DNA of 64,000 nucleotides, taken from NCBI GenBank assembly GCA_024277725.1, contig JAJRUP010000152.1:520-64519 (forward strand). Direction: 5' to 3'. The notes beneath the pieces are model-generated. The model made no database searches. It was not told the origin of the DNA and saw nothing but the letters and a program-made list of their open reading frames with translations. Numbering within the stretch: the first letter of the stretch is position 1; every line of letters begins with the position of its first letter. The position numbers and the translations under genes are program-made. Source of the DNA: a bacterium. Lineage in GTDB: Bacteria; CG2-30-53-67. Positions 24,875-54,490 of the stretch are shown here, in pieces.

Positions 24875-25990
24875 ATGTGCCGATTAAGCGCAGTCACTTC
24901 CGACCAATACTTCTCTCCCATGGAGAACATCCTGGCCCTTGAAACCATGAAGGAAGGGCACGACGGTTCCGGTCTGGGCCTGGTCTTGAAGGACCTGGGC
25001 GGAGAATTCGAGCATCTCAAGGAATATCCGATCCTCTCCGGAATCTGTTCCAACAAAGGAATGGAAGCCCTGAATCATTATATGGAAGAAGCGGGCTTTG
25101 TAGAAAAATTCATGTGGGAACCTCGAATCCGGGAGATCCCGGGTTCGGGAATCACCCGTCGCGACCACTATTTCGCCAAGGCCTACAAATATCCACCTGC
25201 TTTCCAGGACAAAAACGAAGAAGAAAAAGAACAACTCCTTTTGGAAACCCGGTTAGCCCTCCGGGACCTGGGAGAAGCCGACGAGTCGATCTTCGTCTTC
25301 TCTTTCTATCCCGATGTCATCACCTTGAAATCGGTCGGCGACCCCCTGCAGGTGGGAGAATTCTTCGGTCTCGACAAGGATTCACTGACGGCGAAGATTA
25401 TCTTTGCCCAGGGACGGCAGAACACCAATTACGCCATTTATCTTTATGCCTGTCATCCCTTTTTCATTGAAGGCTATTGCACCATGACGAACGGGGAGAA
25501 CACGGCTTTCGTTCCGATCCGGGAATTTTTAACCAGCCGCGGGTTTGCAGGTTACCGGGGGTACAACAGCGACAGCGAGGTCTTCACCCACATCCTCCAC
25601 TATTGTCATCGACAACTCAAATTCCCCCTCCCCTATTTCAAGGATGTCATCACTCCTCTGCAGGAAGGGGAGATCGAAGGGCGTTCGGACCGTGATGCCG
25701 TCCGCCTGATCAAGAAATCCCTACGGCCCCTCTGCATCGACGGACCGAATTGCATAATCGGATTTACCCCGGACGGCACGGTCTTCATGACCCAAGACGC
25801 CAAGAAACTCCGGCCCGGCGTTGTCGGCGGCGTGCCCGGCAAATACGCCCTCATGTCCGAGGAGTGCGGGCTCGACCGGGCCGTACCGGAACGAGACAAG
25901 ACACAAGACATCTGCCCCATGAAATATGATATGGTGGTGGTTTCTCCGGGAGCCAGAAAGGTAACAAAATGGAACCAGCTGAACGTTTAG
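24875..25990 (+). CDS. glutamate synthase, class-II glutamine amidotransferase subunit (archaeal-type domain 1)
   Basis: Begins MCRL (Cys2 nucleophile typical of Ntn class-II GATases). First of three adjacent genes that together cover glutamate synthase domains. Confidence 0.8.
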   Translation: MCRLSAVTSDQYFSPMENILALETMKEGHDGSGLGLVLKDLGGEFEHLKEYPILSGICSNKGMEALNHYMEEAGFVEKFMWEPRIREIPGSGITRRDHYFAKAYKYPPAFQDKNEEEKEQLLLETRLALRDLGEADESIFVFSFYPDVITLKSVGDPLQVGEFFGLDKDSLTAKIIFAQGRQNTNYAIYLYACHPFFIEGYCTMTNGENTAFVPIREFLTSRGFAGYRGYNSDSEVFTHILHYCHRQLKFPLPYFKDVITPLQEGEIEGRSDRDAVRLIKKSLRPLCIDGPNCIIGFTPDGTVFMTQDAKKLRPGVVGGVPGKYALMSEECGLDRAVPERDKTQDICPMKYDMVVVSPGARKVTKWNQLNV

Positions 25991-30146: not shown

Positions 30147-31358
30147 TTACATCCCCAAACTGGCGAGCAGATCATCGACATCCTGCTGACTGCCGACATT
30201 CGCTTCACAGACACTCTCACTTGATTCCTGGCTCTGGGCGTTAAATTCAACGGCCAGTTCCGGATTCATGATGCAAAGCACCTCTCGAAGGGTTCCCGTC
30301 AACGTATTGATCTGCTGACTGACCTTGTCGGCAAATTGCAGGCTCATCTCCGCTTCATCAATCCAGGGGATCACATCCTCCGGGACCTCGTCCCGAAGCT
30401 TACCCAGAATCTTCACGATCGTTTCGGTATTGCTGGCAATCCCTTTCCGGACATGCTGTGTCTTCCGGTGAAAATCCGAGGCGTCGACAATCTCTTCCAG
30501 TTTGTTCAGCACGGCCTTATAGAGTCCCAGAATCTTTTCCCGTTCTTCCATCCGGTGATAACGGTCGAGAAAGGCCACCAACTGGTTCTTGAAGAGGTGT
30601 ACCAGGTCGACCAGACGTCCGTCATCGGACGATATTGTCTCCAGAGGCCGGACCTTCATGGAACCGGCATAATCGGCCTTGCTGAAAAAGACACGGACCG
30701 AACCGTCCTCGGAGAGGGAATGGTTGTAGGTGTTGCGGATCCGTTCCCGGATCTTTGCCTGTTTTTTCGGCTCATCCTCAAAATCGATCGAGCACTCCAT
30801 CCCCAGATCCTTGAGAGTATCTACAACCAGACGGCAGGCTTCCTCCAGATCGAGGGTTTCCTGAAGATACTGCCCGCAGTGAACCAGCCCCGCCAGATCT
30901 TCATGCAACTGGATCAGGGCACCGGCATATTCTTCCATGAGTTTTTTCGACTTCTCCAGGGCACGACATTCCTCCCGTTCCTTCCACCGGGATCGGGCTG
31001 ATCGCGCCATCTGCCGGAACATCAGTGCCGAGGCCGCCTCCGACCGGGGTTGCTCGATGATCATCGTATGATCGGACACCGGCAATCCAGCGGTGATGCC
31101 CGACGTCATCTCGTCAAGCACCACCGTACACTGGATTTCCGGAAACCTGCGGGCCAGCGCATCGGACATGGAAAAGGCATCCCGTTCCGGGGGGGAGTGG
31201 GAGATCAACACCGATGCCCCGGGACATGAATCCAATAATTCCACCGCTTCCTCTTCCGTATCGACAAGAAGGGTCCGTACATTTTCCGTGCAGAACTCCT
31301 CCCCCGGATGTGCGAAGGGGAAAGCACCCACAGCGATCACATTCCATTCCGCATCCAT
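30147..31358 (-). CDS. hypothetical protein with a degenerate receiver-like N-terminal domain
   Basis: 403 aa. The N-terminal ~110 aa (NVRTLLVDTEEEAVELL...ASVLIS) are receiver-like; the rest is a helical acidic region with no recognised motif. Divergent from lptF. Confidence 0.5.
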   Translation of the reverse strand: MDAEWNVIAVGAFPFAHPGEEFCTENVRTLLVDTEEEAVELLDSCPGASVLISHSPPERDAFSMSDALARRFPEIQCTVVLDEMTSGITAGLPVSDHTMIIEQPRSEAASALMFRQMARSARSRWKEREECRALEKSKKLMEEYAGALIQLHEDLAGLVHCGQYLQETLDLEEACRLVVDTLKDLGMECSIDFEDEPKKQAKIRERIRNTYNHSLSEDGSVRVFFSKADYAGSMKVRPLETISSDDGRLVDLVHLFKNQLVAFLDRYHRMEEREKILGLYKAVLNKLEEIVDASDFHRKTQHVRKGIASNTETIVKILGKLRDEVPEDVIPWIDEAEMSLQFADKVSQQINTLTGTLREVLCIMNPELAVEFNAQSQESSESVCEANVGSQQDVDDLLASLGM

Positions 31359-35070: not shown

Positions 35071-35511
35071 TCATTCATGATCTTGCAAAAGGGAAGAACA
35101 GCTCCGGACCATGTTCCGGTAATGGCTCCCCTTCCAATAAACCCGTTGACAAGACAAACAGCGACCGAATTTCGATTCGGCAAGATAGACATAATCCGGA
35201 ACAAAGGGACGAGCATCCTCCCGGGAGATGGGCGTAAGCGACCGGTTGCAGAGGATGCAACGGGAAAGGATCCGCTCCCGGAAGACCGGGTAGGCCCGGA
35301 TGACCTCCTCGAGTTGTGCCGGAGGATCGTTACAGGTGACCAGAAGATATTCCGCCACACCTCGACGCCGGACCAGACGGGTATCCCGCGTCAACAGGAC
35401 CCGCCCCTCCCTCCGGGAAATTTCAATCAGTCGCCCATCCTCCACCGGATTCAGGTAGAGGACGTCAAACCCGAGAACCCGCATCCACCGGGCCAGTTTC
35501 CCCAGCATCAT
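35071..35511 (-). CDS. Mut7-C RNase-domain protein (DUF5615-like)
   Basis: MMLGKLARWMRVLGFDVLY..RVLLTRDTRL..RCILCN..C..C is the Mut7-C pattern. Start set at the internal Met because the upstream part of ORF 35071..35718 overlaps a bidirectional terminator. Confidence 0.65.
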   Translation of the reverse strand: MMLGKLARWMRVLGFDVLYLNPVEDGRLIEISRREGRVLLTRDTRLVRRRGVAEYLLVTCNDPPAQLEEVIRAYPVFRERILSRCILCNRSLTPISREDARPFVPDYVYLAESKFGRCLSCQRVYWKGSHYRNMVRSCSSLLQDHE

Positions 35512-35621
35512 ATCGGCCGCGAAGGTCCGCTCCGGGGCTTTCGGTATCACCTTAACCGCCCTGAAATAAAAGAAAAGTCGTTTAATGTAAGATATCAAAA
35601 GCCTCGGAGAAAAGTCAAGAA

Positions 35622-35654
35622 AACCCCAAAAAAAAGCCCGCTTTCGCGGGCTTT
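35622..35654 (-). terminator. rho-independent terminator of the deacetylase gene (aagcccgc-gaaa-gcgggctt + T8 on minus strand)
   Basis: Plus strand reads aaaaaaaagcccgctttcgcgggctttca. A- and T-tracts on both sides, so possibly bidirectional. Confidence 0.7.
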
Positions 35655-35863
35655 CACAGGGGATCGGGGACCGGCGTAGCAAGGGGGATCGCATTAACCA
35701 CTCCCCGGAAATTCCCAAAGGGTATTTATATTATAAGTAACATGAGAAGGCCAAAAGTCGCGAAAAAATATAAAGAAATCCGTTTTTCTTTCAACCTGTT
35801 GATTTATAAGGTTTATCCCCCTTTGACCCGGTCTTTGTCGTAGCTGTAAGAGAAGTTCTCCGA

Positions 35864-36796
35864 TCAGTTCCGGATCAGGGCCCGCAGATGCATCCGCACC
35901 GCCCCTTTGAGTCCCTCCAGACTGTACCCCCCCTCCAGGAAGGAAAGGAGCCGTCCTCCGCAACGTTCCTCGGCCAGGGCAACCAGGAGTTTCGTCATCC
36001 CGCCGAATCCCTCATCGGTGACCATCATCCCGGCAAGGGGATCATCCCTGTGGGCATCAAAACCTGCCGAAATCAGGATCAGGTCGGGCGGGAAACTCTC
36101 CATCGCCGGGATCAGCCGGTCCACCAGTGCTTCCCGGTAGGCTTTGTCATCACCCCCGGCGGGGAGAGGAACATTCAGGGTTCTCCCTTCCCCCTCCCCC
36201 CGTCCCGTCTGGTCTGCGGCACCGCTCCCCGGATAGTGTGGATATTGATGGATGCTGAAATAAAAGACGGTCGGGTCGGCATAAAAGGTGTTCTGCGTCC
36301 CGTTGCCATGGTGAACATCCCAGTCGACGATAAGAACATTTTTCAGGTTATGTCTTGCCTGTGCATAACGAGCGGTAACGGCAATATTATTAAAGAGACA
36401 GAACCCCATGGCACGGTCACGTTCTGCATGATGCCCCGGCGGTCGTACGGCACAAAAGCCGTTTCGCACCCGCCCCGCCATCATGGCATCAAGCACCGTC
36501 AGCCCACCACCGGCCGCCCGGCGGGCCTCCTCGTAAGAGGCGGAAGAGACCATGGTATCGGGATCAAGGGCATGGATCCCACCCCTGCAGGCCTCTTCTA
36601 CCCGACAAATATAATCTCGATCATGGACCCTCGCCAATTCCTCTACCGTAGCAGAGCGGGGCTCCAGCCGAAGGAGATGAGAAGAGAACTCCGGAAGATG
36701 ACAGACCTCTTCGATGGCCCCGAGTCGATCCGCCCGTTCCGGATGCACCCCCGTATCGTGGTGGTACCCTGAAATGATCAGGCCGGTTTCGTTCAT
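35864..36796 (-). CDS. histone deacetylase-family protein (AcuC/acetylpolyamine amidohydrolase-like)
   Basis: CAVRPPGHHA, DWDVHHGNGTQ, GFDAH..D motifs. Start at MNETGLI. Confidence 0.85.
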   Translation of the reverse strand: MNETGLIISGYHHDTGVHPERADRLGAIEEVCHLPEFSSHLLRLEPRSATVEELARVHDRDYICRVEEACRGGIHALDPDTMVSSASYEEARRAAGGGLTVLDAMMAGRVRNGFCAVRPPGHHAERDRAMGFCLFNNIAVTARYAQARHNLKNVLIVDWDVHHGNGTQNTFYADPTVFYFSIHQYPHYPGSGAADQTGRGEGEGRTLNVPLPAGGDDKAYREALVDRLIPAMESFPPDLILISAGFDAHRDDPLAGMMVTDEGFGGMTKLLVALAEERCGGRLLSFLEGGYSLEGLKGAVRMHLRALIRN

Positions 36797-36970
36797 CAGT
36801 CCTCCCTCTAAAGAGATTGAATGTTTCACTGAGGTTAGACCATAAGAAGTCCGATGTCAATTATCGGTTGTCAGCGTTTCTAAAACCCTTTACAATAATA
36901 ACAAAAGTATTCTCCGGGAACGGAAAACCTGCAACAAACCTTGCCTTTTGGAAGAGAGAAGAATATTTCC

Positions 36971-37591
36971 ATGCCTGAGACTGAGACGAACTACGAAAAA
37001 GCCCTGAAGACCGCTCTCGACAATGCCGTCAATGCCCTCCTCGATCAGGACCTGCAGGCGGTCGCCGACCGAAGCGGCGCCACACTGAAAGCAGACAGAG
37101 TCCTGCAGACATACTTTCTGCACAAAAAGATCCGGGTTTCGGGAAGTTCCAGGGCAGTCTATCTCAACGATGAACCGGCGGGAATCCGCCTGTCGATCCT
37201 CGTCCTCCACTACCTGTTAAAGGCAACAGGGGTCCCTATCTCCGGAAAGAGCATCTCCTTTAAAGAGGTCCCCCAGGGGACACTCTATTTCCAGCCCTTC
37301 CGGGGACGGGTGATCTTCCCGATTCTCAGACTTTTCGATTCGGAACCAGAAGATCTGCTCACCGCGGTCGAAGAACTCGGCGGGGAAAAAACGGAGGAGG
37401 GGGATCTCTCCTTCCGACTCCAGCCCTTTCCCCGGGTCACCGTCCAATACATCTATTACCGGGGGGAGGAAGGGATTCCACCGGACCTGAATATTCTCTT
37501 TGACGCAACGGTTCCCGCCTACCTCTCCACGGAAGATATCGTTGTCCTCTGTGAAGAGATCAATCGCACGTTGAAAACCGCCCGGACATGA
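36971..37591 (+). CDS. hypothetical protein (about 207 aa, possibly DUF3786-like)
   Basis: ATG at 36971 with GGAAGAGAGAAG upstream (the listed ORF starts at TTG 36941). No catalytic motif recognised. 29-bp gap to the next gene suggests an operon. Confidence 0.5.
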   Translation: MPETETNYEKALKTALDNAVNALLDQDLQAVADRSGATLKADRVLQTYFLHKKIRVSGSSRAVYLNDEPAGIRLSILVLHYLLKATGVPISGKSISFKEVPQGTLYFQPFRGRVIFPILRLFDSEPEDLLTAVEELGGEKTEEGDLSFRLQPFPRVTVQYIYYRGEEGIPPDLNILFDATVPAYLSTEDIVVLCEEINRTLKTART

Positions 37592-37619
37592 GGGTTGCAG
37601 CTTTTGCAAGGAGTCTTCC

Positions 37620-38660
37620 ATGATCTTCCCCGGTCGCAAAGCACTGATGGAAAAGATCCCCACCGGGAACATCCGTGTGGATGATCTCATTTCCGAATTC
37701 ACCAACCGGAATTTTTCCGGTTACGCGGAATTCCGTTTTCCCGATTCCAAGGGAATCATCCTCTTTCACAGCGGGGAGATCGTGACTGCGATTTACAAGG
37801 GGGAAAGCCGCGTCAAGAGCCAGGAAGAAGGGATTGCGGCCATCAAGAACGCCTGCCGGCTTCAGGACGGAGAGATCAGTGCCTATCAGCTCCCGGGCGA
37901 AATGGCCCATATGCTCCGGGGACTCTGCAACCGGGAATTTCTCGAAGAGATCCATGTGCCGGGAAAACTCAAGTTGCTCCTCGCTGCCCGGGAAGAGGAA
38001 AACCATACCGGAACGCTTGATATTCTTTTCACCCAGCGCAAAGAGAAAGGGATGATCCTCCTGATCAACGGACGCGTGGCCAATACCTTTCTGGAGATGG
38101 ACAAAAACCTGACTCTGGAAGGGAAAGAAGCGCTGGATCGAATCTATGAACTGTTGGACGACGGGGACGGGAACTGCCGGATTTTCAAATCCGATTTTTC
38201 CCGGGAGATCTGGAAAACGAGACGGGGCACCCGAAAACCCCACGAAAGCCGGATCTACGAAATCCTGACGGAACGGGAAAAAACGAAGGAATCTCCCTTG
38301 AGCAGTATCCTGCGTGATTTTTCCAGGAAGGTCAACAACCCTCCCTTTACCGCCCTCCTCCAGGAAGACGGAACCATTCTCGCATCGGCATCGGAAACCG
38401 AAGTACCCACCGACGGCGAGGGTCCATTCAACAAATTCCTTACCGAGGCCTCGGCACTCTTTGAAACTACCCGCTTAGGCACCCTGAAGGAAGTCCTGTG
38501 CACATCGCAGGAGAAGAATCTTCTGATTCGCGCACTTCCGGAGAAGAGGTGTTTTCATGTCCTGGTGATGGAAAGGAAGAACCTCCCCCGGAATCTCCGG
38601 AAACACCTCGCGGAGCTGGACCGGGAGATGGCTGCACTGGAAGAGAAAGCCGTTTCCTGA
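37620..38660 (+). CDS. hypothetical protein with two DUF4388-like segments and a roadblock/LC7-like C-terminal segment
   Basis: AAGGAG 7 nt upstream of the ATG. Residues ~15-60 (GNIRVDDLISEFTNRNFSGYAEF..GIILFHSGEIVTAIY) and ~125-165 (GTLDILFTQRKEKGMILLINGRVANTFL) recall DUF4388. C-terminus (DGTILASASE...LLIRALPEKRCFHVLV) is roadblock-like. Pattern recognition only. Confidence 0.5.
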   Translation: MIFPGRKALMEKIPTGNIRVDDLISEFTNRNFSGYAEFRFPDSKGIILFHSGEIVTAIYKGESRVKSQEEGIAAIKNACRLQDGEISAYQLPGEMAHMLRGLCNREFLEEIHVPGKLKLLLAAREEENHTGTLDILFTQRKEKGMILLINGRVANTFLEMDKNLTLEGKEALDRIYELLDDGDGNCRIFKSDFSREIWKTRRGTRKPHESRIYEILTEREKTKESPLSSILRDFSRKVNNPPFTALLQEDGTILASASETEVPTDGEGPFNKFLTEASALFETTRLGTLKEVLCTSQEKNLLIRALPEKRCFHVLVMERKNLPRNLRKHLAELDREMAALEEKAVS

Positions 38661-38745: not shown

Positions 38746-39159
38746 TTAGTGGATTTCCAAGGCGTTAAAGAAATAGGAAATCTCGAAGGCCGCCGTCTCC
38801 GGCGCATCGGAGCCGTGGACGGCATTCTGTTCGATACTGGCGGCAAAGTCCTTCCGGATCGTTCCAACTGCTGCTTCTTCGGGATTGGTGGCCCCCATCA
38901 GCTCCCGGTTCTTCCGGATCACATCTTCCCCTTCCAGCACCATCACCACGCAGGGGCCGGAAGACATGAAATCGGTCAGGCTGGAAAAGAAGGGCCGTTC
39001 CTTGTGAACCGCGTAGAAACCTTCGGCCTCGGCCTTGGACAGATGGATCATCTTGATGGCGGCAATCCGAATCCCCGACTTCTGAAAACGGCGGATCACC
39101 TCACCGAGAATATTCTTTTTCACCCCATCGGGCTTCACAATCGACAATGTTCGTTCCAT
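38746..39159 (-). CDS. ndk: nucleoside-diphosphate kinase
   Basis: [20 protein letters not shown] active-site region. Confidence 0.95.
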
Positions 39160-39439
39160 GGATCTGCTCCTTTTTCAACAAGATTGCAAATAAAATTTGA
39201 TCTATGTAACACACAAACAAAGTGGAAGTCAAACATTATCGCAGCTTCAAATCCCATGACCTGCCTGCCGCAGGCAGGCGGAAATGGTTCTCCACCCGCG
39301 CAGCGGTGGGTCTCCTGAAGCCCCCCCGAAGGGGGGACGTAACCCCCTGTCACGCAGTCTGGCATCACAGATGAGGAAGGGAAAAAGCGCGAGAATGAAC
39401 ACAAAGCTCATACACCGGATCGGTTGAACCTCTCCGGGT

Positions 39440-39465
39440 CCGCCACCTGTGAGGTGGTGGTTTTA
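39440..39465 (+). terminator. plus-strand intrinsic terminator-like hairpin (ccgccacc-tgtga-ggtggtgg + TTTTA)
   Basis: 8-bp GC stem with one G-U wobble, 5-nt loop, U-rich tail only on the plus strand. Closes a GC-hairpin-rich ~200-nt segment (39245-39465) antisense to the ndk upstream region. Confidence 0.45.
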
Positions 39466-39565
39466 GATCAGAAGAATACGGCGGCCACAGTCTTAACTGA
39501 CGGAGGCCCCTTGGGTGAGTTTCGAGATTGTCATGGAGGAGAATTGAGAAGGTTGAGAAAATACT

Positions 39566-40117
39566 CTATTTTGCTTTTAATCTCTCCGCCTCCTCCAACC
39601 CCGCCTGAAGGGCCTTGAGATTCAGCTCTTCCGTCCCCCGGGGAACCCGCGAGAGAACCGCCTCTTCGATGGCCTTCCGTGAAACCACCCCGGTGAGTCC
39701 GACAACGGCTCCGAGTGCCACGATATTGCCAACAATCCGACGCCCGATCTTTTCCCCGGCAACCTGAAAGATCGGAACGGAGTAGACGGTGAACTCCCCC
39801 TTCGGGACCTTCTTCACTTCCTGGGGATCAACGATCAGGATGCCTCCGGGCTTGAGATCCGAAGAATACTTGTCACAGGAAACCTGTGTCAGTGCCAGCA
39901 GAATATCGATGTTCGTCGCTTTGGGGTAATCGATCTCTCCCTCACTGATAATGACCTCGGCCTTGCTCGCCCCGCCCCGGGCCTCGGGACCGTAAGACTG
40001 ACTCTGTACGGCATTCTTGTCGTCATAGATCGCCGCCGCTTCGGCCAGGATCACTCCGGCCAGAATAATCCCCTGACCGCCGGACCCGCTGAACCGGACT
40101 TCCACTCGATTGGACAT
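39566..40117 (-). CDS. korC: 2-oxoacid:ferredoxin oxidoreductase gamma subunit
   Basis: VRFSGSGGQGIILAG...YGPEARGG gamma-subunit signature. Confidence 0.85.
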   Translation of the reverse strand: MSNRVEVRFSGSGGQGIILAGVILAEAAAIYDDKNAVQSQSYGPEARGGASKAEVIISEGEIDYPKATNIDILLALTQVSCDKYSSDLKPGGILIVDPQEVKKVPKGEFTVYSVPIFQVAGEKIGRRIVGNIVALGAVVGLTGVVSRKAIEEAVLSRVPRGTEELNLKALQAGLEEAERLKAK

Positions 40118-40210
40118 GAAAAACCCTCACTTCGTTCGGTTCAAACCGTTCAAACAGTCGAATCGGTTTAAACGGCTTAAACGGTTTAAACTATTTGAAC
40201 CGTCCTTTAT
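40118..40210. repeat. AT-rich nested palindromic element between korB and korC
   Basis: cggttcaaaccgttcaaac...ggtttaaacggcttaaacggtttaaac...tttgaaccg. Outer 9-bp inverted repeat and repeated GTTTAAAC palindromes, inside a GC-rich operon. Confidence 0.5.
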
Positions 40211-41077
40211 TTAATTCCCCACCTCGCTCTTCGGGCCGCTCCCCTGGATATACCGCCGCTTACGGACCTCCGAGGCTCGTTCACTCATCTTCCGGTACCG
40301 TTCAATAAATCCGATGCGGGGATGATCCACAAAGATTCCCGTAATGATCTTTCCTTCCCGTTCCTCGTCGGTCATCTTTTCCGCCTTTTCCCTGGGAACA
40401 CTGTCCTTCTTGAAATGTTCCAGAAAGGTCACCGGGTTCGGGGTACGGTTCCGCCGGCCATAAACGGTCGGACATTGGGTTACCGCCTCGACCAGGGAAA
40501 ACCCTTCCCGATCCAGCGCTTTGGCAATATACCCTTCGAGTTGGGCGGCATGATAAACGGTACTCCGTGCCACAAAGGACGCCCCCGCGCCCTCCGTCAG
40601 CCGGACGATATCAAAATTGGGCTCCACCTGGCCGTAGGGAGCGGTACTGGCCATCTTGCCTTCCGGGGTGGCGGGGGAATATTGCCCGCCCGTCATGGCA
40701 TAGATGGAATTGTTGAAAAGGATCACCGTCAGGTCCATGTTCCGCCGTGCGGCATGGATCAGGTGGTTTCCGCCGATGGCCAGCGCATCGCCGTCACCGG
40801 TGACGACAATCACATGGAGCCGCGGTTTGGCGATTTTGATCCCCGTGGCAAAGGCGATCGCACGGCCGTGGGTCGTGTGGAGGGTGTTGAAATCGAGGTA
40901 TCCCGAAGTCCGGCTGGAACAGCCGATTCCCGAGACAACCACCACATCGTCCTTGCTCCATCCCATCTTATGAATGGCGCGGATCAGGGCTTTGACGACG
41001 ATCCCGTTCCCGCAACCGGGGCACCAGATATGGGGAAAGGTGGACGGTCGGATGTATTGCTCATAATCAAAGGCCAT
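40211..41077 (-). CDS. korB: 2-oxoacid:ferredoxin oxidoreductase beta subunit (TPP-binding)
   Basis: WCPGCGNG, GIGCS, GDGDALAIGGNH TPP motif. Confidence 0.9.
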   Translation of the reverse strand: MAFDYEQYIRPSTFPHIWCPGCGNGIVVKALIRAIHKMGWSKDDVVVVSGIGCSSRTSGYLDFNTLHTTHGRAIAFATGIKIAKPRLHVIVVTGDGDALAIGGNHLIHAARRNMDLTVILFNNSIYAMTGGQYSPATPEGKMASTAPYGQVEPNFDIVRLTEGAGASFVARSTVYHAAQLEGYIAKALDREGFSLVEAVTQCPTVYGRRNRTPNPVTFLEHFKKDSVPREKAEKMTDEEREGKIITGIFVDHPRIGFIERYRKMSERASEVRKRRYIQGSGPKSEVGN

Positions 41078-41123
41078 CGTTCAACCCTTTCGAAAAATCG
41101 CTCCCGGGATCGTACGCCTCTTC

Positions 41124-42293
41124 TCAGTCGACCTCCAGAATCCTGTCCAGGATCTCCTCCGGAGAGATGGGCAGGGCGTCGACCCGGTTGAGAGGAACCA
41201 ATCGGGACGAAGGTTCGATCCATTTGCGGACTTCCCCGGCCAACTGTCCGAAACTCAACTCCGGAACGATGATCCGCCGTACTCCCCTGCAGAACTCCCC
41301 CAGTTCCCGGATGGGAAAAGGCCAGATGGTGACGGGGCGGAAAAAACCGACGTTTTTTCCCCGTTGCCATGCCTCTTTCACGGCATGATTTGCCGCCCGC
41401 GCCGTCGAACCGAAGGCCACAACAACCGTATCGAGGGATCCCTGCTGATCTTCCGGAACGATCTGCTCCACATTCCGGATCTCCTCCGCTCCCCGTTCGA
41501 TCTTGCCAATGAGACGTTCCGCCTGACACCGGACCTGTTCCGGCAATCCCGTAGGAAATCCTGTTTCATCGTGATACAGCCCCGTGATGTGAAAGCGGTA
41601 TCCCTCGCCGAAGGCTGCCAGGGGCGAGACATCCCGATCATTGGCATAGGGAAGATACTTATCCTTCGGTCCCCCGGGAGACAACCGGTCGACCACCGAA
41701 TATTCCGCAGGATCGGGAATAACGACCTTCTCCCGCATGTGGGCCAGGATCTCATCCATGAGGAGGATCACCGGTGTCCGGAACCTCTCGGCAAGGTTGA
41801 AGGCCCGGATCGTTTCAGAAAAGACCTCCCGAACCGAGGAAGGGACGAGGACGATCATCGGGTGGTCCCCGTGGGTCCCCCAGCGTGTCTGCATCAGGTC
41901 CGCCTGGGAAGGTCCCGTGGGATGCCCCGTGGAAGGACCGGAACGCATGACATCAATGATCACACAGGGGATCTCCGCCATGCAGGCAAATCCGATGTTC
42001 TCCTGTTTCAGGGAAAATCCGGGACCGCTGGTGGCGGTCATCGATTTCACCCCGGCGATGGAGGCCCCGATCACGGCGGCAATCGAGGCGATCTCATCCT
42101 CCATCTGGATAAAGTTTCCTCCCACTCTCGGAAGGTAGAGAGAGAGAACCTCGGCAATCTCGGAAGAGGGGGTAATCGGATAGCCGGCAAAGAAACGGCA
42201 CCCCGCCGCCAGGGCGCCTTCGGCACAGGCCTCATTCCCCTGCATGAGGCGGACATCCCGCCCCTTCTTCTCTCCTTCGGCACGAGGCGTCAT
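41124..42293 (-). CDS. korA: 2-oxoacid:ferredoxin oxidoreductase alpha subunit
   Basis: LMQGNEACAEGALAAGCRFFAGYPITPSSEI. Start set at the Met near 42293; the ORF extends to 42428 into korD. Confidence 0.85.
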   Translation of the reverse strand: MTPRAEGEKKGRDVRLMQGNEACAEGALAAGCRFFAGYPITPSSEIAEVLSLYLPRVGGNFIQMEDEIASIAAVIGASIAGVKSMTATSGPGFSLKQENIGFACMAEIPCVIIDVMRSGPSTGHPTGPSQADLMQTRWGTHGDHPMIVLVPSSVREVFSETIRAFNLAERFRTPVILLMDEILAHMREKVVIPDPAEYSVVDRLSPGGPKDKYLPYANDRDVSPLAAFGEGYRFHITGLYHDETGFPTGLPEQVRCQAERLIGKIERGAEEIRNVEQIVPEDQQGSLDTVVVAFGSTARAANHAVKEAWQRGKNVGFFRPVTIWPFPIRELGEFCRGVRRIIVPELSFGQLAGEVRKWIEPSSRLVPLNRVDALPISPEEILDRILEVD

Positions 42294-42586
42294 CGACCTT
42301 TTCCTTTCCGTACAGGCACTTTTTCCTCCACCTTCCTCCCTTCCTCTTGGTTCCCCTTTTCCACGGCAGGCCCCTTCGGATGACAGAGGATGGCAAAATC
42401 GGGACAGTGCTGTTCGCACATCAGACAACCGATACAGTCCTTCATCCTTACCGGCTCACAATGAAATTCCGGATAGGTCAGCTCCAGCACCTGTTTCGGA
42501 CAGAGGGCGACACAGATCCCGCAGGACTTGCAACGTTTCGTGTCCACTACAATCTTAAACTCTTTTTTCGTCTTCTTTTCCGTCAT
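42290..42586 (-). CDS. korD: 2-oxoacid:ferredoxin oxidoreductase delta subunit (2x[4Fe-4S] ferredoxin)
   Basis: [12 protein letters not shown] and [12 protein letters not shown]. Confidence 0.8.
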
Positions 42587-43460
42587 CGTTCTCGATTAGG
42601 ACCTTTCGAATCGTTTCCCCGATTGCAGCTGGATGTTCCGCCATCCGGACACCGGCGGCGCGCAAGGCTTCGATCTTGACTTCGGCCGTTCCCCGGCCTC
42701 CGGAGATGATCGCTCCGGCATGGCCCATCCGTTTGCCCGCCGGCGCCGTCTTCCCGGAAATATATCCCACCACCGGTTTGTGAAAGGAGGTCCGGATAAA
42801 CTCCGCCGCCTCTTCTTCGGCCCTCCCGCCGATCTCGCCGATCAGGACCACGCCCTCCGTCTCCGGGTCCTCCTGGAAGAGGGCCAAAAGATCAACAAAG
42901 GAGGTCCCCACAATCGGATCGCCGCCGATGCCGATGCAGGTACTCTGTCCCTCTCCTGCTTTCGTAATCTGACGCACCGCCTCATAGGTCAGGGTCCCGC
43001 TGCGGGAGATGACCCCCACCCGCCCGGGGCGATGGATCGGACCGGGCATGATCCCGATCTTGCAGGCACCGGGCGTAATAATCCCCGGACAATTGGGGCC
43101 GATAAGACGGCTGTTCTTCCCCTTCAGAAAACGGACGACATCGGCCATATCGAGGAGGGGAATCCCTTCCGTGACACAGACAATCAGCTCCACCCCGGCT
43201 TCCACCGCCTCCAGGATGGAATCGGCCGCGTAAGGGGCCGGCACCATGATCATGGAGGCATCGATCGAATGCCGTGCGCAGGCCCGCTCCACGGTATCGT
43301 AGACGGGCACTCCGTCCACGGTCTTGCCTTCCTTCCCGGGCGTCACACCGGCGACAATCTTCGTACCGTAGTTGAGGCACTGCCGGGCGTGAAAAGAACC
43401 TTCCCGTCCCGTGATCCCCTGGATCAAGATCTTCGTTTCTCTATGAACGAATATACTCAT
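42555..43460 (-). CDS. sucD: succinyl-CoA synthetase alpha subunit
   Basis: [12 protein letters not shown], CoA-binding and phosphohistidine region (ISRSGTL..GIGGDP). Confidence 0.9.
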
Positions 43461-43609
43461 CCTTGGCCTATCCCGCAATCGGAGGAACCGCCCGTTGCTG
43501 TCTTTACTTCATCATCTCACGCCTAACCTTCATCCTCTCATGGATCAATATCGGAAACGGGGAGAAATGATTAAGGTCAGGTGAAAAACGGCATAACCAC
43601 CTCAGACGA

Positions 43610-44776
43610 TCAGGAAGCCTCCTGTACACTCCGAACGATTTTCGTCGCCGCTTCCAACATGTCGGAGGCCGTTTCGATCGCCAATTTCGACTTCCGGAAG
43701 ATCGCCCTCCCCTCCTTGACGTTGGTCCCTTCAAGACGGACAACGATGGGGAGGACCATCTTCAGCTTGGCCGCTGCTTCCACAACCCCCTCCGCCACCC
43801 GGTCACAGCGGACAATTCCGCCGAAGATATTGATCAGCACCCCCCGTACCCGTGAATCGCCCATGAGAATCCGGAAAGCCTTCTCGATCCGCTCCACGTC
43901 GGCCGCTCCGCCCACGTCGAGAAAGTTGGCGGGCGCTCCCCCCACGTGCTGGATCATGTCCATCGTCGCCATGGCGAGCCCGGCGCCATTGACCATACAT
44001 CCGATGTTCCCCTCCAGGCGGATATAACTCAGATGAGACTCCATGGCTTCCCGTTCCAGAGAATCTTCCTCCTCCGGGTCGCGCATCGCTTCGATCTCCG
44101 GCTGCCGGAAGAGGGAATTGTCATCAATCAGGATTTTGGCGTCAAGGGCCACCAGACGATGGTCCCCTGTCACCACGAGAGGGTTGACTTCCACAAGAGA
44201 ACAATCCCGGGCGATGAAGGTACTGTAAAGATTGGAGGCCACCTGCAGAAAGGACGGCAGGAGCTGTTTGCCGATCTTCAGGGCATGGGCCATCCGTCGG
44301 ACGTAAAAGGGCCTTAAACCCAACGCCGTATCAATAAAGAATCGATGGATCTTCTGAGGATGAAGGTGCGCCAGTTCTTCAATATCCACCCCTCCCGCTG
44401 CACTGGCCATGACCACTTGAGAGGCCGTCTCCCGGTCCAGGGTGATCGCCAGGTAGAGTTCCCGGTGAATCTCCAGCGCCCGCTCCACCAGGACCTGTCG
44501 CACCAGGGATCCTTCCGGACCGGTCTGGGGCGTAACCAGCTTTTGACCCAACAATTCTCCCGCGATCTTTTTTGCCTCGGAGGCATCTTCCGCCAACCGG
44601 ACCCCGCCTCCCTTTCCCCGCCCTCCGGCATGGATCTGAGCCTTGACGACAACACGCCCCGTAATCTTCTCTGCGATCTTTTCCGCCAACTCAGGCGTCG
44701 TTGCGGGATGCCCGAAGGGAACGGGGACTCCAAAGTCGTGCAGGATCGCCTTCGCCTGATATTCGTGGATCTTCAT
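43610..44776 (-). CDS. sucC: succinyl-CoA synthetase beta subunit
   Basis: MKIHEYQAKAIL, ATP-grasp, GNIGCMVNGAGLAMATMD. Confidence 0.9.
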   Translation of the reverse strand: MKIHEYQAKAILHDFGVPVPFGHPATTPELAEKIAEKITGRVVVKAQIHAGGRGKGGGVRLAEDASEAKKIAGELLGQKLVTPQTGPEGSLVRQVLVERALEIHRELYLAITLDRETASQVVMASAAGGVDIEELAHLHPQKIHRFFIDTALGLRPFYVRRMAHALKIGKQLLPSFLQVASNLYSTFIARDCSLVEVNPLVVTGDHRLVALDAKILIDDNSLFRQPEIEAMRDPEEEDSLEREAMESHLSYIRLEGNIGCMVNGAGLAMATMDMIQHVGGAPANFLDVGGAADVERIEKAFRILMGDSRVRGVLINIFGGIVRCDRVAEGVVEAAAKLKMVLPIVVRLEGTNVKEGRAIFRKSKLAIETASDMLEAATKIVRSVQEAS

Positions 44777-44811
44777 ATTCAGAGACCATCACATTTTCGG
44801 ATTGTTCTTTT

Positions 44812-45540
44812 CTATCTCCCGGACTTTGATTTTTTCCTGAGCCGCGACCGGAGGATCTCCATTTTCAGCTCTGCAATCGCCCCGGTGACGTTGATCTCCT
44901 TCGGACAGGTCTCCACACAATTGAAGATTGTATGACACTTGTAGGGGCCGGTCAAATCATTGAGAATCTCAAGGCGTTCCTCCCCCGCCTGATCCCGGGA
45001 ATCGAAGATAAAACGGTGCGCCTTGAGGAGCGCCGCAGGTCCCAGGTAGGCCTTGTCATACCAGTAGGTGGGGCAGGCCGAGGTGCAGGAACCACAGAGG
45101 ATGCATTTGGTCGGCTCGTCAATGCGGTCCCGCTCTTCAGGACTCTGAAGCCGCTCCTTTTCCGGCGGTCGATCGTTGTTAACGAACCAGGGCTTGACCG
45201 CCTCATTCCGTTCGAAAAAGGCATCGCTATCGACGATGAGATCCTTGATGACGGGAAACCCCTTCAAGGGATCAATCCGGATCACTCCCCGTTTCTTCAG
45301 GTCTCGCACGAGGGTCCGGCAGGCGAGCCGGTTCTTTCCGTTGATCATCATGGCATCGGAACCACAGACACCGTGAGCGCAGGAACGCCGAAAAGAGAGG
45401 GTTCCATCGAGTTTCCACTTGATCTCATGGATGCAATCGAGAATCCGCCAGTCCGGCTGCACGTCGATCCTGTACTCCCGGTACAGCGGGACAGAACCGT
45501 TTTCCGGATCAAAACGGAAGATTTTGAAGCATCGTTCCAT
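44812..45540 (-). CDS. sdhB: succinate dehydrogenase / fumarate reductase iron-sulfur subunit
   Basis: [2Fe-2S] (CAHGVCGSDAMMINGKNRLAC) and CILCGSCTSACP / CHTIFNCVETCP clusters. Confidence 0.9.
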   Translation of the reverse strand: MERCFKIFRFDPENGSVPLYREYRIDVQPDWRILDCIHEIKWKLDGTLSFRRSCAHGVCGSDAMMINGKNRLACRTLVRDLKKRGVIRIDPLKGFPVIKDLIVDSDAFFERNEAVKPWFVNNDRPPEKERLQSPEERDRIDEPTKCILCGSCTSACPTYWYDKAYLGPAALLKAHRFIFDSRDQAGEERLEILNDLTGPYKCHTIFNCVETCPKEINVTGAIAELKMEILRSRLRKKSKSGR

Positions 45541-45541
45541 C

Positions 45542-47275
45542 TCAGTAGGTCCTTTCCCTCGGCTGAAAACGGGTAATCACCACCGGCTTATAGGAGATTT
45601 CCGGTCCCTCCGCCCCCTTGCGGACCAGGGTATGTTTCAGAAAGTTTTCATCATCCCGGTCGGGGTAGTCTTCCCGGAAGTGCGCCCCCCGGCTCTCTTT
45701 GCGTGCCAGAGCACCGGCCACCATCGTCTCGGCAAGGGAGAGCAGATCGCCAAGCTCCCAGGCCTCGATCAGGTCGGTGTTACAAACCCGTCCCCGATCC
45801 ATGATCCGAATGCCGGCATAGCGGGTACGGAGCCGGGCCAGGTCCGCCTGCGCCTCCCGAAGGAGTTGCTCATTGCGAAAAACGGAACAGCGGAACATCA
45901 TCACCTCCTGAAGCAGCGACCGGATCCCGGCCGCCGTCTCCTCGCCGGAACCGCTTAAGAGATCCTCGATACGAAGGCAAACGGCATCGGCAACATCGGC
46001 GGCAGGTCCCGGCATACCGAGACCGCCGATATCGGTCAGGATCCGCCTCCCCGCCCGTTTTCCGAAAACGACAATGTCAAGAAGGGAGTTGCAACCAAGA
46101 CGGTTTCCACCATGGACGGAAACACAGGCACATTCCCCCGCAGCATAGAGACCGGGGACGGGGGTCCCTTTGTCATCGACGACCACCCGGCCGTCCACAT
46201 CGGTGGGGATCCCCCCCATGGCATAATGGGCCGTCGGCTGTACCGGGATCGGCTCCCGGATCGCATCAACCCCGATATAGGTCAAGGCGAAACTGTGGAT
46301 ATCGGGGAGTTTTTCCAGGATCTTCTTTTTGCCCATATGACGAATATCGAGATGGACATAGTCTTTCCCACCAATGCCCCGATTTTCGCGGATCTCCCGG
46401 TAGATCGCCCGGGAGACGACGTCTCGCGGGGCGATGTCCTTCATCGACGGGGCATAACGTTCCATGAATCGCTCTGCATGGCCGTTGAGAAGGATCCCCC
46501 CCTCCCCTCGGGCCCCCTCGGTGATGAGGATCCCCAGCTTGTAGATCCCCGTGGGGTGGAACTGGATGAATTCCATGTCCTCCAGGGGAATCCCGGCGGC
46601 ATAAGCCATGGCCATACCGTCCCCCGTATTGGCATGGGCGTTGGAAGTCGTCTTGAAAACACGGCCGTAGCCCCCCGTTGCGAGAAGGACCGCCTTGGCA
46701 TGAAAGAGATGAATCCCGCCATGTACAACGTCCCAGGCCACGACCCCCTCGACGCTCCCCTCCTCCCGGATCAGGGAGAGAGCGTAATACTCCGAATAGA
46801 AGCGGACTTCCTTCCGCAGACAATGTTCATAAAGGGTATGCAGGATCACATGCCCCGTCCGGTCCGCCGCATGACAGGCCCGCGTGGCCGAGTGCCCCCC
46901 GAAAGGGCGCTGCGAGATCCGTCCGTCGGGCAGGCGGCTGAAGGGGACGCCGAGATGCTCCAGTTCATAGACCGTCTGCGGAGCTTCCGAACAGAGAACC
47001 TCGATCGCATCCTGATCGCCGAGATAATCGCTTCCCTTCACCGTATCAAAGATATGTTTCTCGCAGGAATCGTCGTCCACATTGCCCAGGGCCGCAGCGA
47101 TCCCTCCCTGGGCGGCACCGGTATGGGACCGGGAGGGAAAGACCTTGCTGAGGACCGCCACATCAGCCCCGTCGGACGCCTCCAGGGCGGCCCGGAGTCC
47201 GGCACCGCCGGCCCCGACGATCAGCACATCATGGCGGTGCAGAACAGGAGAGGAAATTGTCGTCATAAAGGGCAC
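45542..47275 (-). CDS. sdhA: succinate dehydrogenase / fumarate reductase flavoprotein subunit
   Basis: [17 protein letters not shown] motif, covalent-FAD His region (SHTGAAQGG), HGGNRLG. Confidence 0.9.
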
Positions 47276-47281
47276 GTTCCT

Positions 47282-47644
47282 TTACGATTGAATCGTGAAA
47301 ACCGCGATCGAATAGACACCGATCATGAAAAACACCAGTGCCACCGTCCAGAGCAGGATGAGAAGCATGCGCTGCAGCTTTTCACGATGTACATATTCCA
47401 GCACCACCGTCTGAAAACCGTTAAAACCATGGAAAATTGCAAGGGTCAGAAAAAGAATGTCAAAGATCTTCCAGTAGGGCGAAGCCAGGCGGACCGCCAC
47501 CTTCCGGTAAGTCACAAAACCTTCCTGGAAATAATGGAGAAAGTAGAAGTGCGTCAGCAACAGGATCAGCAACCCCGCCGCCGTCAGGCGTTGCAGGAAC
47601 CAGAGCAGGATTCCGCCCGGTCGTCTCGCATCCACAAATGCCAT
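47282..47644 (-). CDS. sdhD: succinate dehydrogenase membrane anchor subunit (SdhD-like)
   Basis: Three TM helices. Start set at MAFVDARRPGG. Position in the sdhCDAB operon. Confidence 0.65.
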   Translation of the reverse strand: MAFVDARRPGGILLWFLQRLTAAGLLILLLTHFYFLHYFQEGFVTYRKVAVRLASPYWKIFDILFLTLAIFHGFNGFQTVVLEYVHREKLQRMLLILLWTVALVFFMIGVYSIAVFTIQS

Positions 47645-47652
47645 AACATTCC

Positions 47653-48024
47653 TCAACCGGGAAACTGCCTGCCCAGAAGATTCAGGATCGGAACGACCCC
47701 GATCAGCAGAACCACCACCGCAAGACCGGCCAACACGAAAAAGAGTCCCTTCTGATGACGGACGCCCCACCCGGTATCAATCAGAAGGAGGCGTACCCCG
47801 TTCAAGGCATGATACAGTACCGTCCCCAACAGTCCGACTTCAAAGAAGAGAAAGAGAGGAGTCTGCACCGTCGCCATAACACGATCGAACCCTTCCGGGC
47901 CCTGACCAATCGTGCGGACCACCCAGATATGGATCACCAGGTAAAGGGAAAGGAGAAGACCCGTAATCCGGTGAAGCACCCAGGCAAAGGACCCGACGTG
48001 CCATTGATACCGTTGTGCCGACAT
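47653..48024 (-). CDS. sdhC: succinate dehydrogenase cytochrome b subunit (SdhC-like)
   Basis: QRYQWHVGSFAWVLHRITG parallels the E. coli SdhC N-terminus. GGAAAGG RBS before the ATG at 48024. Confidence 0.65.
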   Translation of the reverse strand: MSAQRYQWHVGSFAWVLHRITGLLLSLYLVIHIWVVRTIGQGPEGFDRVMATVQTPLFLFFEVGLLGTVLYHALNGVRLLLIDTGWGVRHQKGLFFVLAGLAVVVLLIGVVPILNLLGRQFPG

Positions 48025-48149
48025 CTGCTGCAGCCTTTCCTCAAAGAACCGGCCGGCCGAAATCATAAGGGAGAAAAACAGAAGAATTTCTATGACTATA
48101 CCGAAGAGGCAGCAAATTTTCAATGGAATTTCTCAAATTCCTGCCCGCC

Positions 48150-48192
48150 TGCAGAAAATAAAGAAGGGCCGGGACCGGCAAACCGGTCCCGG
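48150..48192 (-). terminator. intrinsic terminator after comEA (ccgggaccgg-tttg-ccggtcccgg + T-rich on minus strand)
   Basis: 10-bp perfect stem at 48169-48192 followed on the minus strand by cccttctttattttctg. Confidence 0.65.
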
Positions 48193-48210
48193 CAGGAAAG
48201 ACCCAAGGAA

Positions 48211-48540
48211 TCAGTGGGGAAGGTCGCGGTGCTTTACCGAAACCGTCACGCGAGGCTTGATCTTTTCCAACAGTTTCTCACCAATCCCCTTGACCCGGAG
48301 AAGGTCTTCGACGGATGCAAAGTTTCCCTTCTTCAGCCGGTAGTCGATGATGGCCTGTGCCTTCTTCTCCCCGATGCCGGGCAGGGTACTGAGTTGATCG
48401 AGGCTCGCCCGGTTCAGATCGACTTTTTCCACCTTCACTTTCATGGAGACAGCGGAGTCACCGGCCGTCACCGTTGAAACCCCCAGGGCAACCAGAACGA
48501 TGACGGCAAAAATTACGGTAGTGGCGTATCTTTTTCTCAT
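48211..48540 (-). CDS. comEA: ComEA-family helix-hairpin-helix DNA-binding protein
   Basis: Signal/TM N-terminus, [26 protein letters not shown]...[10 protein letters not shown] tandem HhH. Confidence 0.75.
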
Positions 48541-52999: not shown

Positions 53000-53656
53000 T
53001 CAGCTCAACCGTGCAAAACCGTACCAGATGCGGACCATTTGCCACAGGGTCAGCGGCTTCGTGACCACCTCCGTCCGGCCGGCGCGGACCGCCTGCACGA
53101 TGGAAGAAATCGACCTTTCGGCATCAACGATCGTCGATGTCCTGTCAAACTGACGAAGCATGTGGGTATCGGAGGAACCAACCAGGGGGATGCCGTAGTC
53201 TCGGCAGATTCGTTCCGCCTTTCGGTTGTAATTGACCAGGCGGTGATAGAAATGGGAGAACTCGACGGCGTCGAAAAGCGTCCTGTTCTGCATGAATCGT
53301 CCGTTGAGACAGGTGGTCTTGGGAAAGAAGGGATGAGGAGCGATGATGAGCAGATGTTCATCCTTCGCCTCCCGGAGGTCCCGGAAATCCCGGATCGACT
53401 GATGTTCCGCTCTTGCATTAATCAGAAGGACATGCTTGCCTTCCACAAGGAGTTCGATCCCCGGGATCAGGAGGATCCCCCGCTCCCCGGCATAGTCCCG
53501 CAACTCCTCACTGAAGGTTACCACCCCGTGGTTGGTAATGGAGAGGACATCATACCCCTTGTGACAGGCAAGATCAATGATCTCCCGGTCCGAATAGGAG
53601 ATCCGGTCGTAAAGGTCGGAACCGGTATGGAGATGAAAATCACACTTGAGTTTCAC
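53000..53656 (-). CDS. PHP-domain metal-dependent phosphoesterase
   Basis: CDFHLHTGSDLYD..ITNHG..APHPF..GSSDTH polymerase/histidinol-phosphatase fold motifs. Confidence 0.75.
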   Translation of the reverse strand: MKLKCDFHLHTGSDLYDRISYSDREIIDLACHKGYDVLSITNHGVVTFSEELRDYAGERGILLIPGIELLVEGKHVLLINARAEHQSIRDFRDLREAKDEHLLIIAPHPFFPKTTCLNGRFMQNRTLFDAVEFSHFYHRLVNYNRKAERICRDYGIPLVGSSDTHMLRQFDRTSTIVDAERSISSIVQAVRAGRTEVVTKPLTLWQMVRIWYGFARLS

Positions 53657-53833
53657 AGGTCACCTCAACGATTATCATAGCATATTTTTCCCATTGCCGG
53701 AGGGGAAACCTCCCGCGGAAAGACGACCGGAGGCGACCTTCTGCGGCACGGTGGCCGGAAAAAGGCCCTTGTAAAAAATCACAGAGGAGGAGTTTCAACG
53801 GGGGGAGAACATGACAGGGAAATTCCAATTCGG

Positions 53834-54337
53834 CTATGCCGGGGAACCGGGGAAGACGGTGACGATCCGGTCCCCCACGTGAACATCGAATTCGGAGCAG
53901 AGCAGCACCAGTTCTGCATCCTCCAGGGGCATGTTGATCTCCAGGGCGATCGGTTTTTTCCCGGCATCCACCCGGTACCGGTAGAGGTCCTTTGCCTCCA
54001 ACAGACGTTCCGAGATCGAAAGCGGGGTCAGGTCGAAGATCCGCAACCGGTCCCGCTCCACCCGGTTCCGGTAGTAGATCTGCACGACATCCCGGAAAAC
54101 AAGCCGGTGGGGAAGATAGGGATTGACCGTCCCGGAATTGATCCGCAACCAATCCTGACACCGCAGATCGACACGAACTTCTTCGCCGTGAAGATCCAGA
54201 TCAACCGTCTCCACATCCGCCTGGTGGAAGGAGAAATCCTGCCGAAAGGTTTCGGAATCGATCCGACCTCCCGCAATGTCGTCTGCAACTTTTTTCAGAT
54301 ATTCCCGGATCTGGTCGTCCGAATAATTTTCCGTCAT
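53834..54337 (-). CDS. hypothetical protein (about 167 aa)
   Basis: No recognised motif. GTG/ATG starts at 54343/54337. Preceded on its strand by repeat copy R2. Confidence 0.45.
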   Translation of the reverse strand: MTENYSDDQIREYLKKVADDIAGGRIDSETFRQDFSFHQADVETVDLDLHGEEVRVDLRCQDWLRINSGTVNPYLPHRLVFRDVVQIYYRNRVERDRLRIFDLTPLSISERLLEAKDLYRYRVDAGKKPIALEINMPLEDAELVLLCSEFDVHVGDRIVTVFPGSPA

Positions 54338-54416: not shown

Positions 54417-54490
54417 AGCTTTCAGCTCTTACGCCCCCTCATCCCAACCTTCTCCCCCAAGGGGAGAAGGAGAAATAACAGGTTTGGTTT
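54417..54490 (-). repeat. R2 copy (inverted orientation) of the hairpin-module repeat
   Basis: Reverse complement reads caaacctgttatttctccttctccccttgggggagaaggttgggatgagggggcgtaagagctgaaagct, collinear with R1. Confidence 0.55.

Follow-up and report, generated by a model that had tools for sequence, protein, structure and literature searches.

A predicted operon of a DUF3786 gene and a PATAN-PATAN-roadblock fusion gene, restricted to one Nitrospirota clade

Results

ORF1 and ORF2 form a small predicted operon

A 64,000-nucleotide stretch of DNA from an uncultured bacterium of the Nitrospirota (GenBank assembly GCA_024277725.1, contig JAJRUP010000152.1, positions 520 to 64,519), referred to below as the window, was analyzed around two adjacent open reading frames (ORFs), ORF1 at 36971-37591 (+) and ORF2 at 37620-38660 (+), encoding proteins of 206 aa and 346 aa. 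A preliminary description of the locus had reported a co-oriented pair with a 29-bp gap and a first product of 207 aa; the pair is present as described, but the spacer measures 28 nt and ORF1 is one residue shorter. The program-called start of ORF1 is a TTG at 36941, but its homologues begin at the residue encoded by the ATG at 36971 (MPETETNYEKAL; alignment A2, comprising 25 sequences down to 25% identity, Wood-Ljungdahl-operon members included), and the start was therefore set there. Both are real genes, with 35 homologues for ORF1, 15 full-length homologues at 49-99% identity for ORF2, and structure models for both. The products are soluble, maximal 19-residue hydropathy values of 1.38 and 0.77 ruling out transmembrane or secreted proteins.

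A Shine-Dalgarno sequence, AAGGAG, was read from the sequence inside the spacer at 37608-37613 (+), 6 nt ahead of the ATG of ORF2, and purine-rich GGAAGAGAGAAG lies upstream of ORF1 at 36950-36961. A sigma-70-like promoter candidate (TTGTCA-17-TACAAT, a 10/12 match to the consensus and identified by that match only) precedes ORF1 at 36868-36896 (+), and a consensus scan found no such site between ORF1 and ORF2. Divergently from the pair runs the histone-deacetylase-family (HDAC) gene of the preliminary description, located at 35864-36829 (-) and assigned to Hist_deacetyl by Pfam (E 8.6e-99). No Rfam family, riboswitch or other RNA element was detected in the leader or flanks, a sub-threshold snoRNA-model match inside ndk being the only signal. 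The short spacer with its AAGGAG, the sole promoter-like site ahead of ORF1, and distances between -4 and +33 nt in every paired locus indicate that ORF1 and ORF2 constitute a small predicted operon, which is restricted to one Nitrospirota clade.

ORF2 is predicted to combine two PATAN-like domains with a roadblock domain

The ORF2 product consists of a first and a second DUF4388/PATAN-like domain, a linker with a conserved motif, and a roadblock/LC7 domain, an architecture whose domains had been recognized by eye in the preliminary description. In the structure model, the first PATAN-like domain (37638-37952 (+), residues 7-111) adopts a beta-alpha-beta3-alpha-beta-alpha-beta topology. The second (37956-38195 (+), residues 113-192) is the part matched by the Pfam DUF4388 model (PF14332), which scores 27.0 bits (cut-off 25), the match starting at residue 120. 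The same model matches 13 of the 15 close homologues and, with a best E of 1.3e-24, 70 of 99 distant relatives. In relatives, the match runs over residues 117-190 and model positions 7-98. The sequence pattern that had been seen twice in ORF2 is a real internal repeat: in the 99-sequence alignment, hhalign pairs residues 14-94 with residues 113-196 at a probability of 99.2% and an E-value of 6.4e-20, the signal being weak (E 0.026) when only the 15 close homologues are used. Pfam identified no Response_reg (REC) domain in ORF2, and the model displays two compact alpha/beta domains of ~80-105 residues and no alpha-clip helical-hairpin insertion.

The C-terminal domain (38289-38654 (+), residues 224-345) is modeled with the order alpha-beta-beta-alpha-beta-beta-beta-alpha, that is, an alpha-beta2-alpha-beta3 core followed by a C-terminal helix; the model delimits this domain at residues 226-345 and the second PATAN-like domain at residues 116-192. 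Foldseek searches with the ORF2 model retrieved MglB, LAMTOR and a Robl structure, the E-values ranging from 2e-6 to 3e-4 and the target-normalized TM scores, TM(target), being ~0.7; these fold searches gave no query ranges, and the structural matches were placed on residues 224-345 by topology and by sequence-level matches. Among the latter, a profile of 22 ORF2-family C-terminal segments compared with PDB sequences matched MglC (7ct3_A; E 5e-4) and dynein LC7b (E 0.94). ORF2 itself has no match to Pfam Robl_LC7 (PF03259), and the relative P0052, which has both halves in common with ORF2, reaches E 2.2e-4 and 21.4 bits, just under the cut-off of 23. RagC-CTD (the RagC C-terminal domain) and LAMTOR score on par with MglB, and the similarity therefore holds at the superfamily level. 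Judged by model and profile matches, the ORF2 C-terminus belongs to the roadblock/LC7 superfamily.

Between these halves, the linker (38187-38288 (+), residues 190-223; modeled with low confidence) carries the family-wide motif S-D/E-F-S-x-E/D-x-W-K/R-x-R...S-R at 38187-38255 (residues 190-212), the best-conserved segment outside the domain cores. S191, F193, S194, W198 and R201 never vary in alignment A5, whose members fall to 23% overall identity. Despite this conservation, the predicted local distance difference test (pLDDT) score drops below 50 for residues 194-223. The motif is probably a docking motif for some partner.

ORF2-like proteins define a sizeable family

A word-based search yielded 15 close ORF2 homologues of 341-355 aa from metagenome-assembled genomes (MAGs) of uncultured Nitrospirae/Nitrospirota. 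An exhaustive profile search extended this set to 237 cluster representatives with E<=1e-3; in almost all of them, the match is limited to query residues 1 to ~195, corresponding to the tandem PATAN-like module, placed N-terminally in proteins of ~320-420 aa. The whole three-part architecture is retained in an intermediate group with 23-42% identity, comprising 78 metagenomic loci, one Vicinamibacteria-labelled protein and one protein from a 5.87-Mb genome. In more distant relatives, a helical C-terminus with a YPFLDPF motif stands in place of the roadblock domain, and 13 of these relatives match the archaeal DUF2226. ORF2-like proteins thus define a sizeable uncharacterized family that includes Nitrospirota MAGs and a Vicinamibacteria MAG. 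A literature search, beyond whose reach Makarova et al. 2006 lay, found no published description of a fused PATAN-PATAN-roadblock architecture. PATAN, roadblock and DUF3786 are themselves known; this fusion, and its lineage-specific operon with DUF3786, are new.

ORF1 belongs to the DUF3786 family

The first product had been described as lacking any recognizable motif. It matches Pfam DUF3786 (PF12654) over its full length, at 168.2 bits against a cut-off of 27 (E 1.7e-49; residues 27-197 aligned with model positions 1-173 of 176). Residues L77, L79, H80, Y81, Y106, R113, L176, T187, E188 and D189 are invariant in alignment A2, and the invariant DUF3786 set (LxLHY, Y, R, TED) is fully present, identifying ORF1 by sequence as an ordinary family member. 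A Walker-A-like stretch, GVPISGKS (37283-37306, residues 105-112; pattern G-x4-G-K-[ST]), is unconserved in the A2 homologues and was dismissed as a chance match. The AlphaFold model of ORF1 is very confident, with a pLDDT of 94.6 and a predicted template modeling score (pTM) of 0.90. PDB sequence searches with the single proteins and with the family profile A3 returned no match for DUF3786 or for the PATAN-like module, NCBIfam has no match for ORF1 or ORF2, and the literature on DUF3786/PF12654 is essentially nil.

Deltaproteobacteria and Dehalococcoidales MAGs contain distant DUF3786 genes within Wood-Ljungdahl/CODH-ACS operons, all of which lack a PATAN gene. In two of these loci (L008 and L009, each at 5001-5651), the gene directly follows metF, after a 28-nt gap, in a CdhD/AcsE/MetV/MetF cluster; in the Dehalococcoidales MAG (L010, 5001-5678), it directly follows acsE in a CODH-ACS-AcsC-AcsE cluster. 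Like these proteins, ORF1 contains all invariant residues, but it is only 33-36% identical to them. The placement differs as well: ORF1 is divergent from the deacetylase gene and followed by ORF2, near ndk and the genes for a 2-oxoacid:ferredoxin oxidoreductase (OFOR), and the 64-kb window contains no gene of the one-carbon (C1) pathway. DUF3786 is a family with next to no literature, a confident predicted structure and no solved structural relative, whose distant members consistently reside in C1-fixation operons; the metF/acsE neighborhood is the only functional hint for the family.

Pairing of ORF1 and ORF2 is confined to one clade and not kept throughout it

ORF1 and ORF2 are adjacent in ~10 distinct loci, all belonging to one Nitrospirota clade. 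The order of genes is the same in all close-homologue loci: LptF/G, a Trk-type channel, Mut7-C, the divergent HDAC gene, DUF3786, ORF2, convergent NDK, and OFOR. Co-occurrence of the deacetylase gene with the pair, a point raised in the preliminary description, is hence found throughout. With synteny extending over the entire block in this clade, adjacency of the two genes is weak evidence for a common function.

Two relatives harbor DUF3786 without ORF2. In L011 (ORF1 73% identical), HDAC, DUF3786 and NDK genes follow one another, with a 66-bp gap where ORF2 would lie (3828-3895). The same HDAC-DUF3786-NDK order without ORF2 exists in L099 (ORF1 61% identical; 4006-5863), where a 250-aa ORF lies between the HDAC and DUF3786 genes; this ORF was rejected as an ORF2 counterpart, being membrane-like and unrelated (hhalign E 0.65). 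Both loci are nested among ORF2-bearing ones in a neighbor-joining tree of ORF1 (no bootstrap), and two losses of ORF2 therefore have to be assumed. Conversely, a search of the 78 intermediate ORF2-like loci with the DUF3786 hidden Markov model yielded 0/78 matches. Hence, of the dedicated two-gene module that had been suggested, the conserved adjacency in other genomes stands, yet it is limited to one syntenic clade, with ORF2 missing in two nested relatives and no co-occurrence in the loci surveyed outside it. We conclude that the pairing is clade-restricted and that ORF1 and ORF2 are separable and evolve independently. Their predicted co-transcription is probably due to a gene order passed on by inheritance or to a loose tie in regulation, not to an obligate complex.

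Adjoining the deacetylase gene in all related loci is a gene for a Mut7-C RNase-domain protein (35071-35718 (-), E 9e-43). The program ORF comprises 215 aa compared with 145-159 aa in relatives, so its true start is probably internal. In L005 (GCA_033723195.1), a DDE_Tnp_1 transposase gene with DUF4372 has inserted between the Mut7-C and HDAC genes (633-1799).

Genomic context of distant ORF2-like genes and of the window

In the 78 intermediate loci, the ORF2-like gene is typically preceded by divergent PATAN-PilZ and cNMP-binding/TPR genes and followed by tmk, holB, hfq-like and smpB genes, with Tmk encoded downstream in 42/78 loci and HolB in 32/78. The ORF2-like gene and tmk are separated by 220-300 bp or ~1 kb, and by <=150 bp in 1/42 cases; such gaps argue against a tight coupling of the two. 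A pilC-like/pilB(MshEN)-like cluster was identified downstream in 11 loci with enough sequence (T2SSF homologue found). This arrangement is visible in L101 (7309-21143), a contig of the 5.87-Mb genome, where the ORF2-like gene lies between the PATAN-PilZ plus cNMP-binding pair and tmk-holB-hfq-like/smpB, and a cluster of pilC-like, MshEN-PilB-like, pilMNO-like and pseudopilin genes follows ~3 kb further; the Vicinamibacteria-labelled protein is among the close relatives of its ORF2-like product.

Another subgroup combines a divergent AAA+ ATPase gene with tandem ORF2-like paralogues. Over 90 loci, 27 extra ORF2-like copies were counted; many loci have one to three of these just upstream of the matched copy, often near a divergent gene for a 550-aa AAA+ ATPase (L023, L031, L054, L066, L069-L071, L073, L075 and others, from soil and sediment). 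These tandem paralogues suggest heteromeric roadblock pairs. No small GTPase was encoded in the conserved neighbor clusters of the 90 clustered loci or in the Pfam-annotated contexts.

Likewise, the 64-kb window contains no Ras-like GTPase according to a motif regular expression, phmmer with an MglA query, and Pfam annotation of ~45 ORFs, in line with what had been noted for the immediate vicinity; the only GTPase is Ffh. Motif and phmmer searches revealed no second PATAN or roadblock ORF in the window, and the Pfam survey no pilus genes. Its genes are housekeeping throughout. Those before the pair are CoaBC, Gmk, YicC, an NFACT protein, a REC-HD regulator, RNase HII, TrmD, RimM, L19, Ffh, Rpe, a DsrE-like protein, a hybrid histidine kinase, a sulfatase, GltB-like proteins and LptFG; those after it are NDK, OFOR, SucCD, succinate dehydrogenase/fumarate reductase (SDH/FRD), a subtilase, ProRS, IspG, RseP, Dxr, CdsA, UppS, Frr, PyrH and Tsf. 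Directly downstream of and convergent with the pair, the block at 38746-47770 (-) encodes NDK, a four-subunit OFOR, succinyl-CoA synthetase and SDH/FRD; it looks like a tricarboxylic acid (TCA)/reverse-TCA (rTCA) cluster and recurs in every related Nitrospirota locus.

Signaling genes are present in the window at 10184-11413 (+), a REC-HD(HD_5) response regulator, and at 19456-22292 (+), where the DsrE-like gene is followed by a GAF-PAS-HisKA-HATPase-REC hybrid kinase; neither has an evident link to the pair. Sizeable ORFs without a Pfam match at E<=1e-3 lie at 509-1288 (+), 7167-9266 (+), 24875-25990 (+), 30147-31358 (-), 47755-48477 (+), 53640-54161 (-) and 54422-55003 (-), some of which may be spurious antisense frames.

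Discussion

ORF2 brings together in one chain two domain types with established binding functions. Roadblock domains form dimeric platforms for the regulation or docking of nucleoside triphosphatases (NTPases) (Koonin and Aravind 2000; MglB; as reviewed in PMC4316618), and the PATAN (DUF4388) domain of PixE alone binds PilB1 and PilC (10.1101/2021.06.11.447907). It is this fusion of an NTPase platform with a protein-binding type that leads us to propose, tentatively and with slightly less than even confidence, that ORF2 dimerizes and serves as an adaptor or regulator of an NTPase whose gene lies elsewhere, and that it is co-transcribed with DUF3786 yet separable from it. ORF2 would act as a cytoplasmic, non-enzymatic adaptor, its C-terminal roadblock domain serving as a dimerization and NTPase-docking platform by analogy with MglB, MglC, LAMTOR and the Rag C-terminal domains, its two N-terminal PATAN-like domains as protein-binding output modules by analogy with the PixE PATAN domain, and the F-S-x-E-x-W-K-x-R linker motif as a docking peptide. 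The partner would be nucleotide-dependent, either a small GTPase or an ATPase of the PilB/AAA+ type, and encoded outside the 64-kb window; ORF2 would couple it to a target held by the PATAN-like domains. ORF1, judged from its conserved polar residues and the metF/acsE placement of its distant homologues, may have an accessory role in ferredoxin/C1-type carbon metabolism. PATAN genes are at times encoded in the vicinity of mglA, and MglB homologues in that of PATAN genes (PMC4316618); that PATAN and roadblock domains, earlier only occasional neighbors in MglA/MglB polarity circuits, here form one polypeptide supports their direct functional coupling in a Rosetta-stone-type argument.

Several observations weigh against this proposal. 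The ORF2 model is of medium confidence (pLDDT 72.8, pTM 0.39), and ORF2's own DUF4388 score is marginal. The role proposed for DUF3786 derives from L008-L010, and two of these three loci share one protein; the search of this genome for MglA-like GTPases and pilus ATPases as partners covers the 64-kb window. The 4-bp overlap of ORF1 and ORF2 in L007 and the 3-nt gaps in L005, L014 and L016 represent the tight spacing typical of functionally linked partners. The analysis establishes that the two genes are real, which domains they encode, and their phyletic distribution and contexts; dimerization, partner class, motif role and DUF3786 function are inferred.

Tight spacing is what one would expect of the main rival, a dedicated two-protein module in which ORF2 binds to DUF3786 and governs its activity or localization, tied to the adjacent ferredoxin-dependent genes (OFOR, TCA/rTCA). 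The two genes are co-directional at translational-coupling-type distances in ~10 loci, in which ORF1 and ORF2 identities fall to ~50%, ORF1 is preceded by the single promoter-like site, DUF3786 relatives share operons with C1-pathway genes, and the pair abuts NDK, OFOR, SucCD and SDH. However, the region from LptFG to OFOR is syntenic throughout the clade, which deprives adjacency of much of its weight, ORF2 was lost twice while DUF3786 was retained, and the genes do not co-occur outside the clade, in 0/78 ORF2-like and 0/3 Wood-Ljungdahl-type DUF3786 loci (L008-L010). We regard such a module as possible but clearly short of probable. A role of ORF2 as a true MglB-type GTPase-activating protein (GAP) extended by PATAN domains, acting on an MglA/SofG-like GTPase encoded elsewhere and polarizing type IV pili, appears unlikely. 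It would fit the presence of MglB and MglC among the top structural neighbors, the published links of PATAN to MglA/MglB neighborhoods and to PilB/PilC binding, and the Acidobacteriota-type relatives, whose gene adjoins a PATAN-PilZ gene and lies ~3 kb upstream of a pilC/pilB(MshEN)/pilMNO/pseudopilin cluster. That cluster is nevertheless set apart by tmk-holB-hfq-like/smpB and occurs in one subgroup only; neither the window, the 90-locus neighbor clusters nor the Pfam-annotated contexts contain an mglA-like gene, ORF2 misses Robl_LC7 as even P0052 does, and RagC-CTD and LAMTOR score as high as MglB, which leaves the likeness at the superfamily level.

The frequent tmk-holB genes downstream of distant relatives, and NDK as the next gene in the window, might instead point to nucleotide or replication housekeeping as the function of the ORF2 family, an idea to which we give very little credence. 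The tmk-holB pair is a generic housekeeping operon, and ndk is convergent and stays in place where ORF2 was lost. The long intergenic gaps, together with this orientation of ndk, led us to reject a functional link to either. A bolder reading, which we deem improbable, holds that PATAN-PATAN-roadblock proteins, with 237 cluster representatives for the tandem module and 78 metagenomic loci for the whole architecture, are a widespread, hitherto unstudied GTPase-independent scaffold class, one of which was recruited in this Nitrospirota clade to control DUF3786. If true, a polarity-type adaptor would be wired to central carbon metabolism, giving a first functional handle on DUF3786, which would then be an accessory of ferredoxin-dependent carbon fixation (the Wood-Ljungdahl pathway in other phyla, the OFOR/rTCA neighborhood here). 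The value of the present analysis lies in annotation and hypotheses; it demonstrates no surprising mechanism and does not overturn current understanding.

Compared with known systems, the adaptor proposed for ORF2 combines familiar parts in an unfamiliar way. Like the PatA-type PATAN proteins (Synechocystis PixE/PixG, Anabaena PatA), ORF2 begins with homologous PATAN-like domains, but these are two short tandem domains modeled without an alpha-clip, there are no pilus genes nearby, and the C-terminus carries a roadblock domain instead of REC. The alpha-clip insertion, described for PATAN domains of Synechocystis and many other bacteria (10.1101/2021.06.11.447907), is not universal. Lacking both REC domain and alpha-clip, ORF2 is not a PatA-type regulator. 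With MglB/MglC of Myxococcus and Thermus, the GAP/polarity module of MglA, ORF2 shares the roadblock/LC7 fold and its additional C-terminal helix; its roadblock domain is, however, part of a 346-aa multidomain protein and not a stand-alone protein of ~130-160 aa, and the missing GTPase neighbor and sub-threshold Robl_LC7 similarity mean that ORF2 is not a demonstrable MglB orthologue. In Ragulator/LAMTOR, the Rag C-terminal domains and the Streptomyces conservon protein CvnB, the GTPase is always fused to the roadblock domain or encoded in the same operon, whereas in ORF2 it is neither fused nor adjacent.

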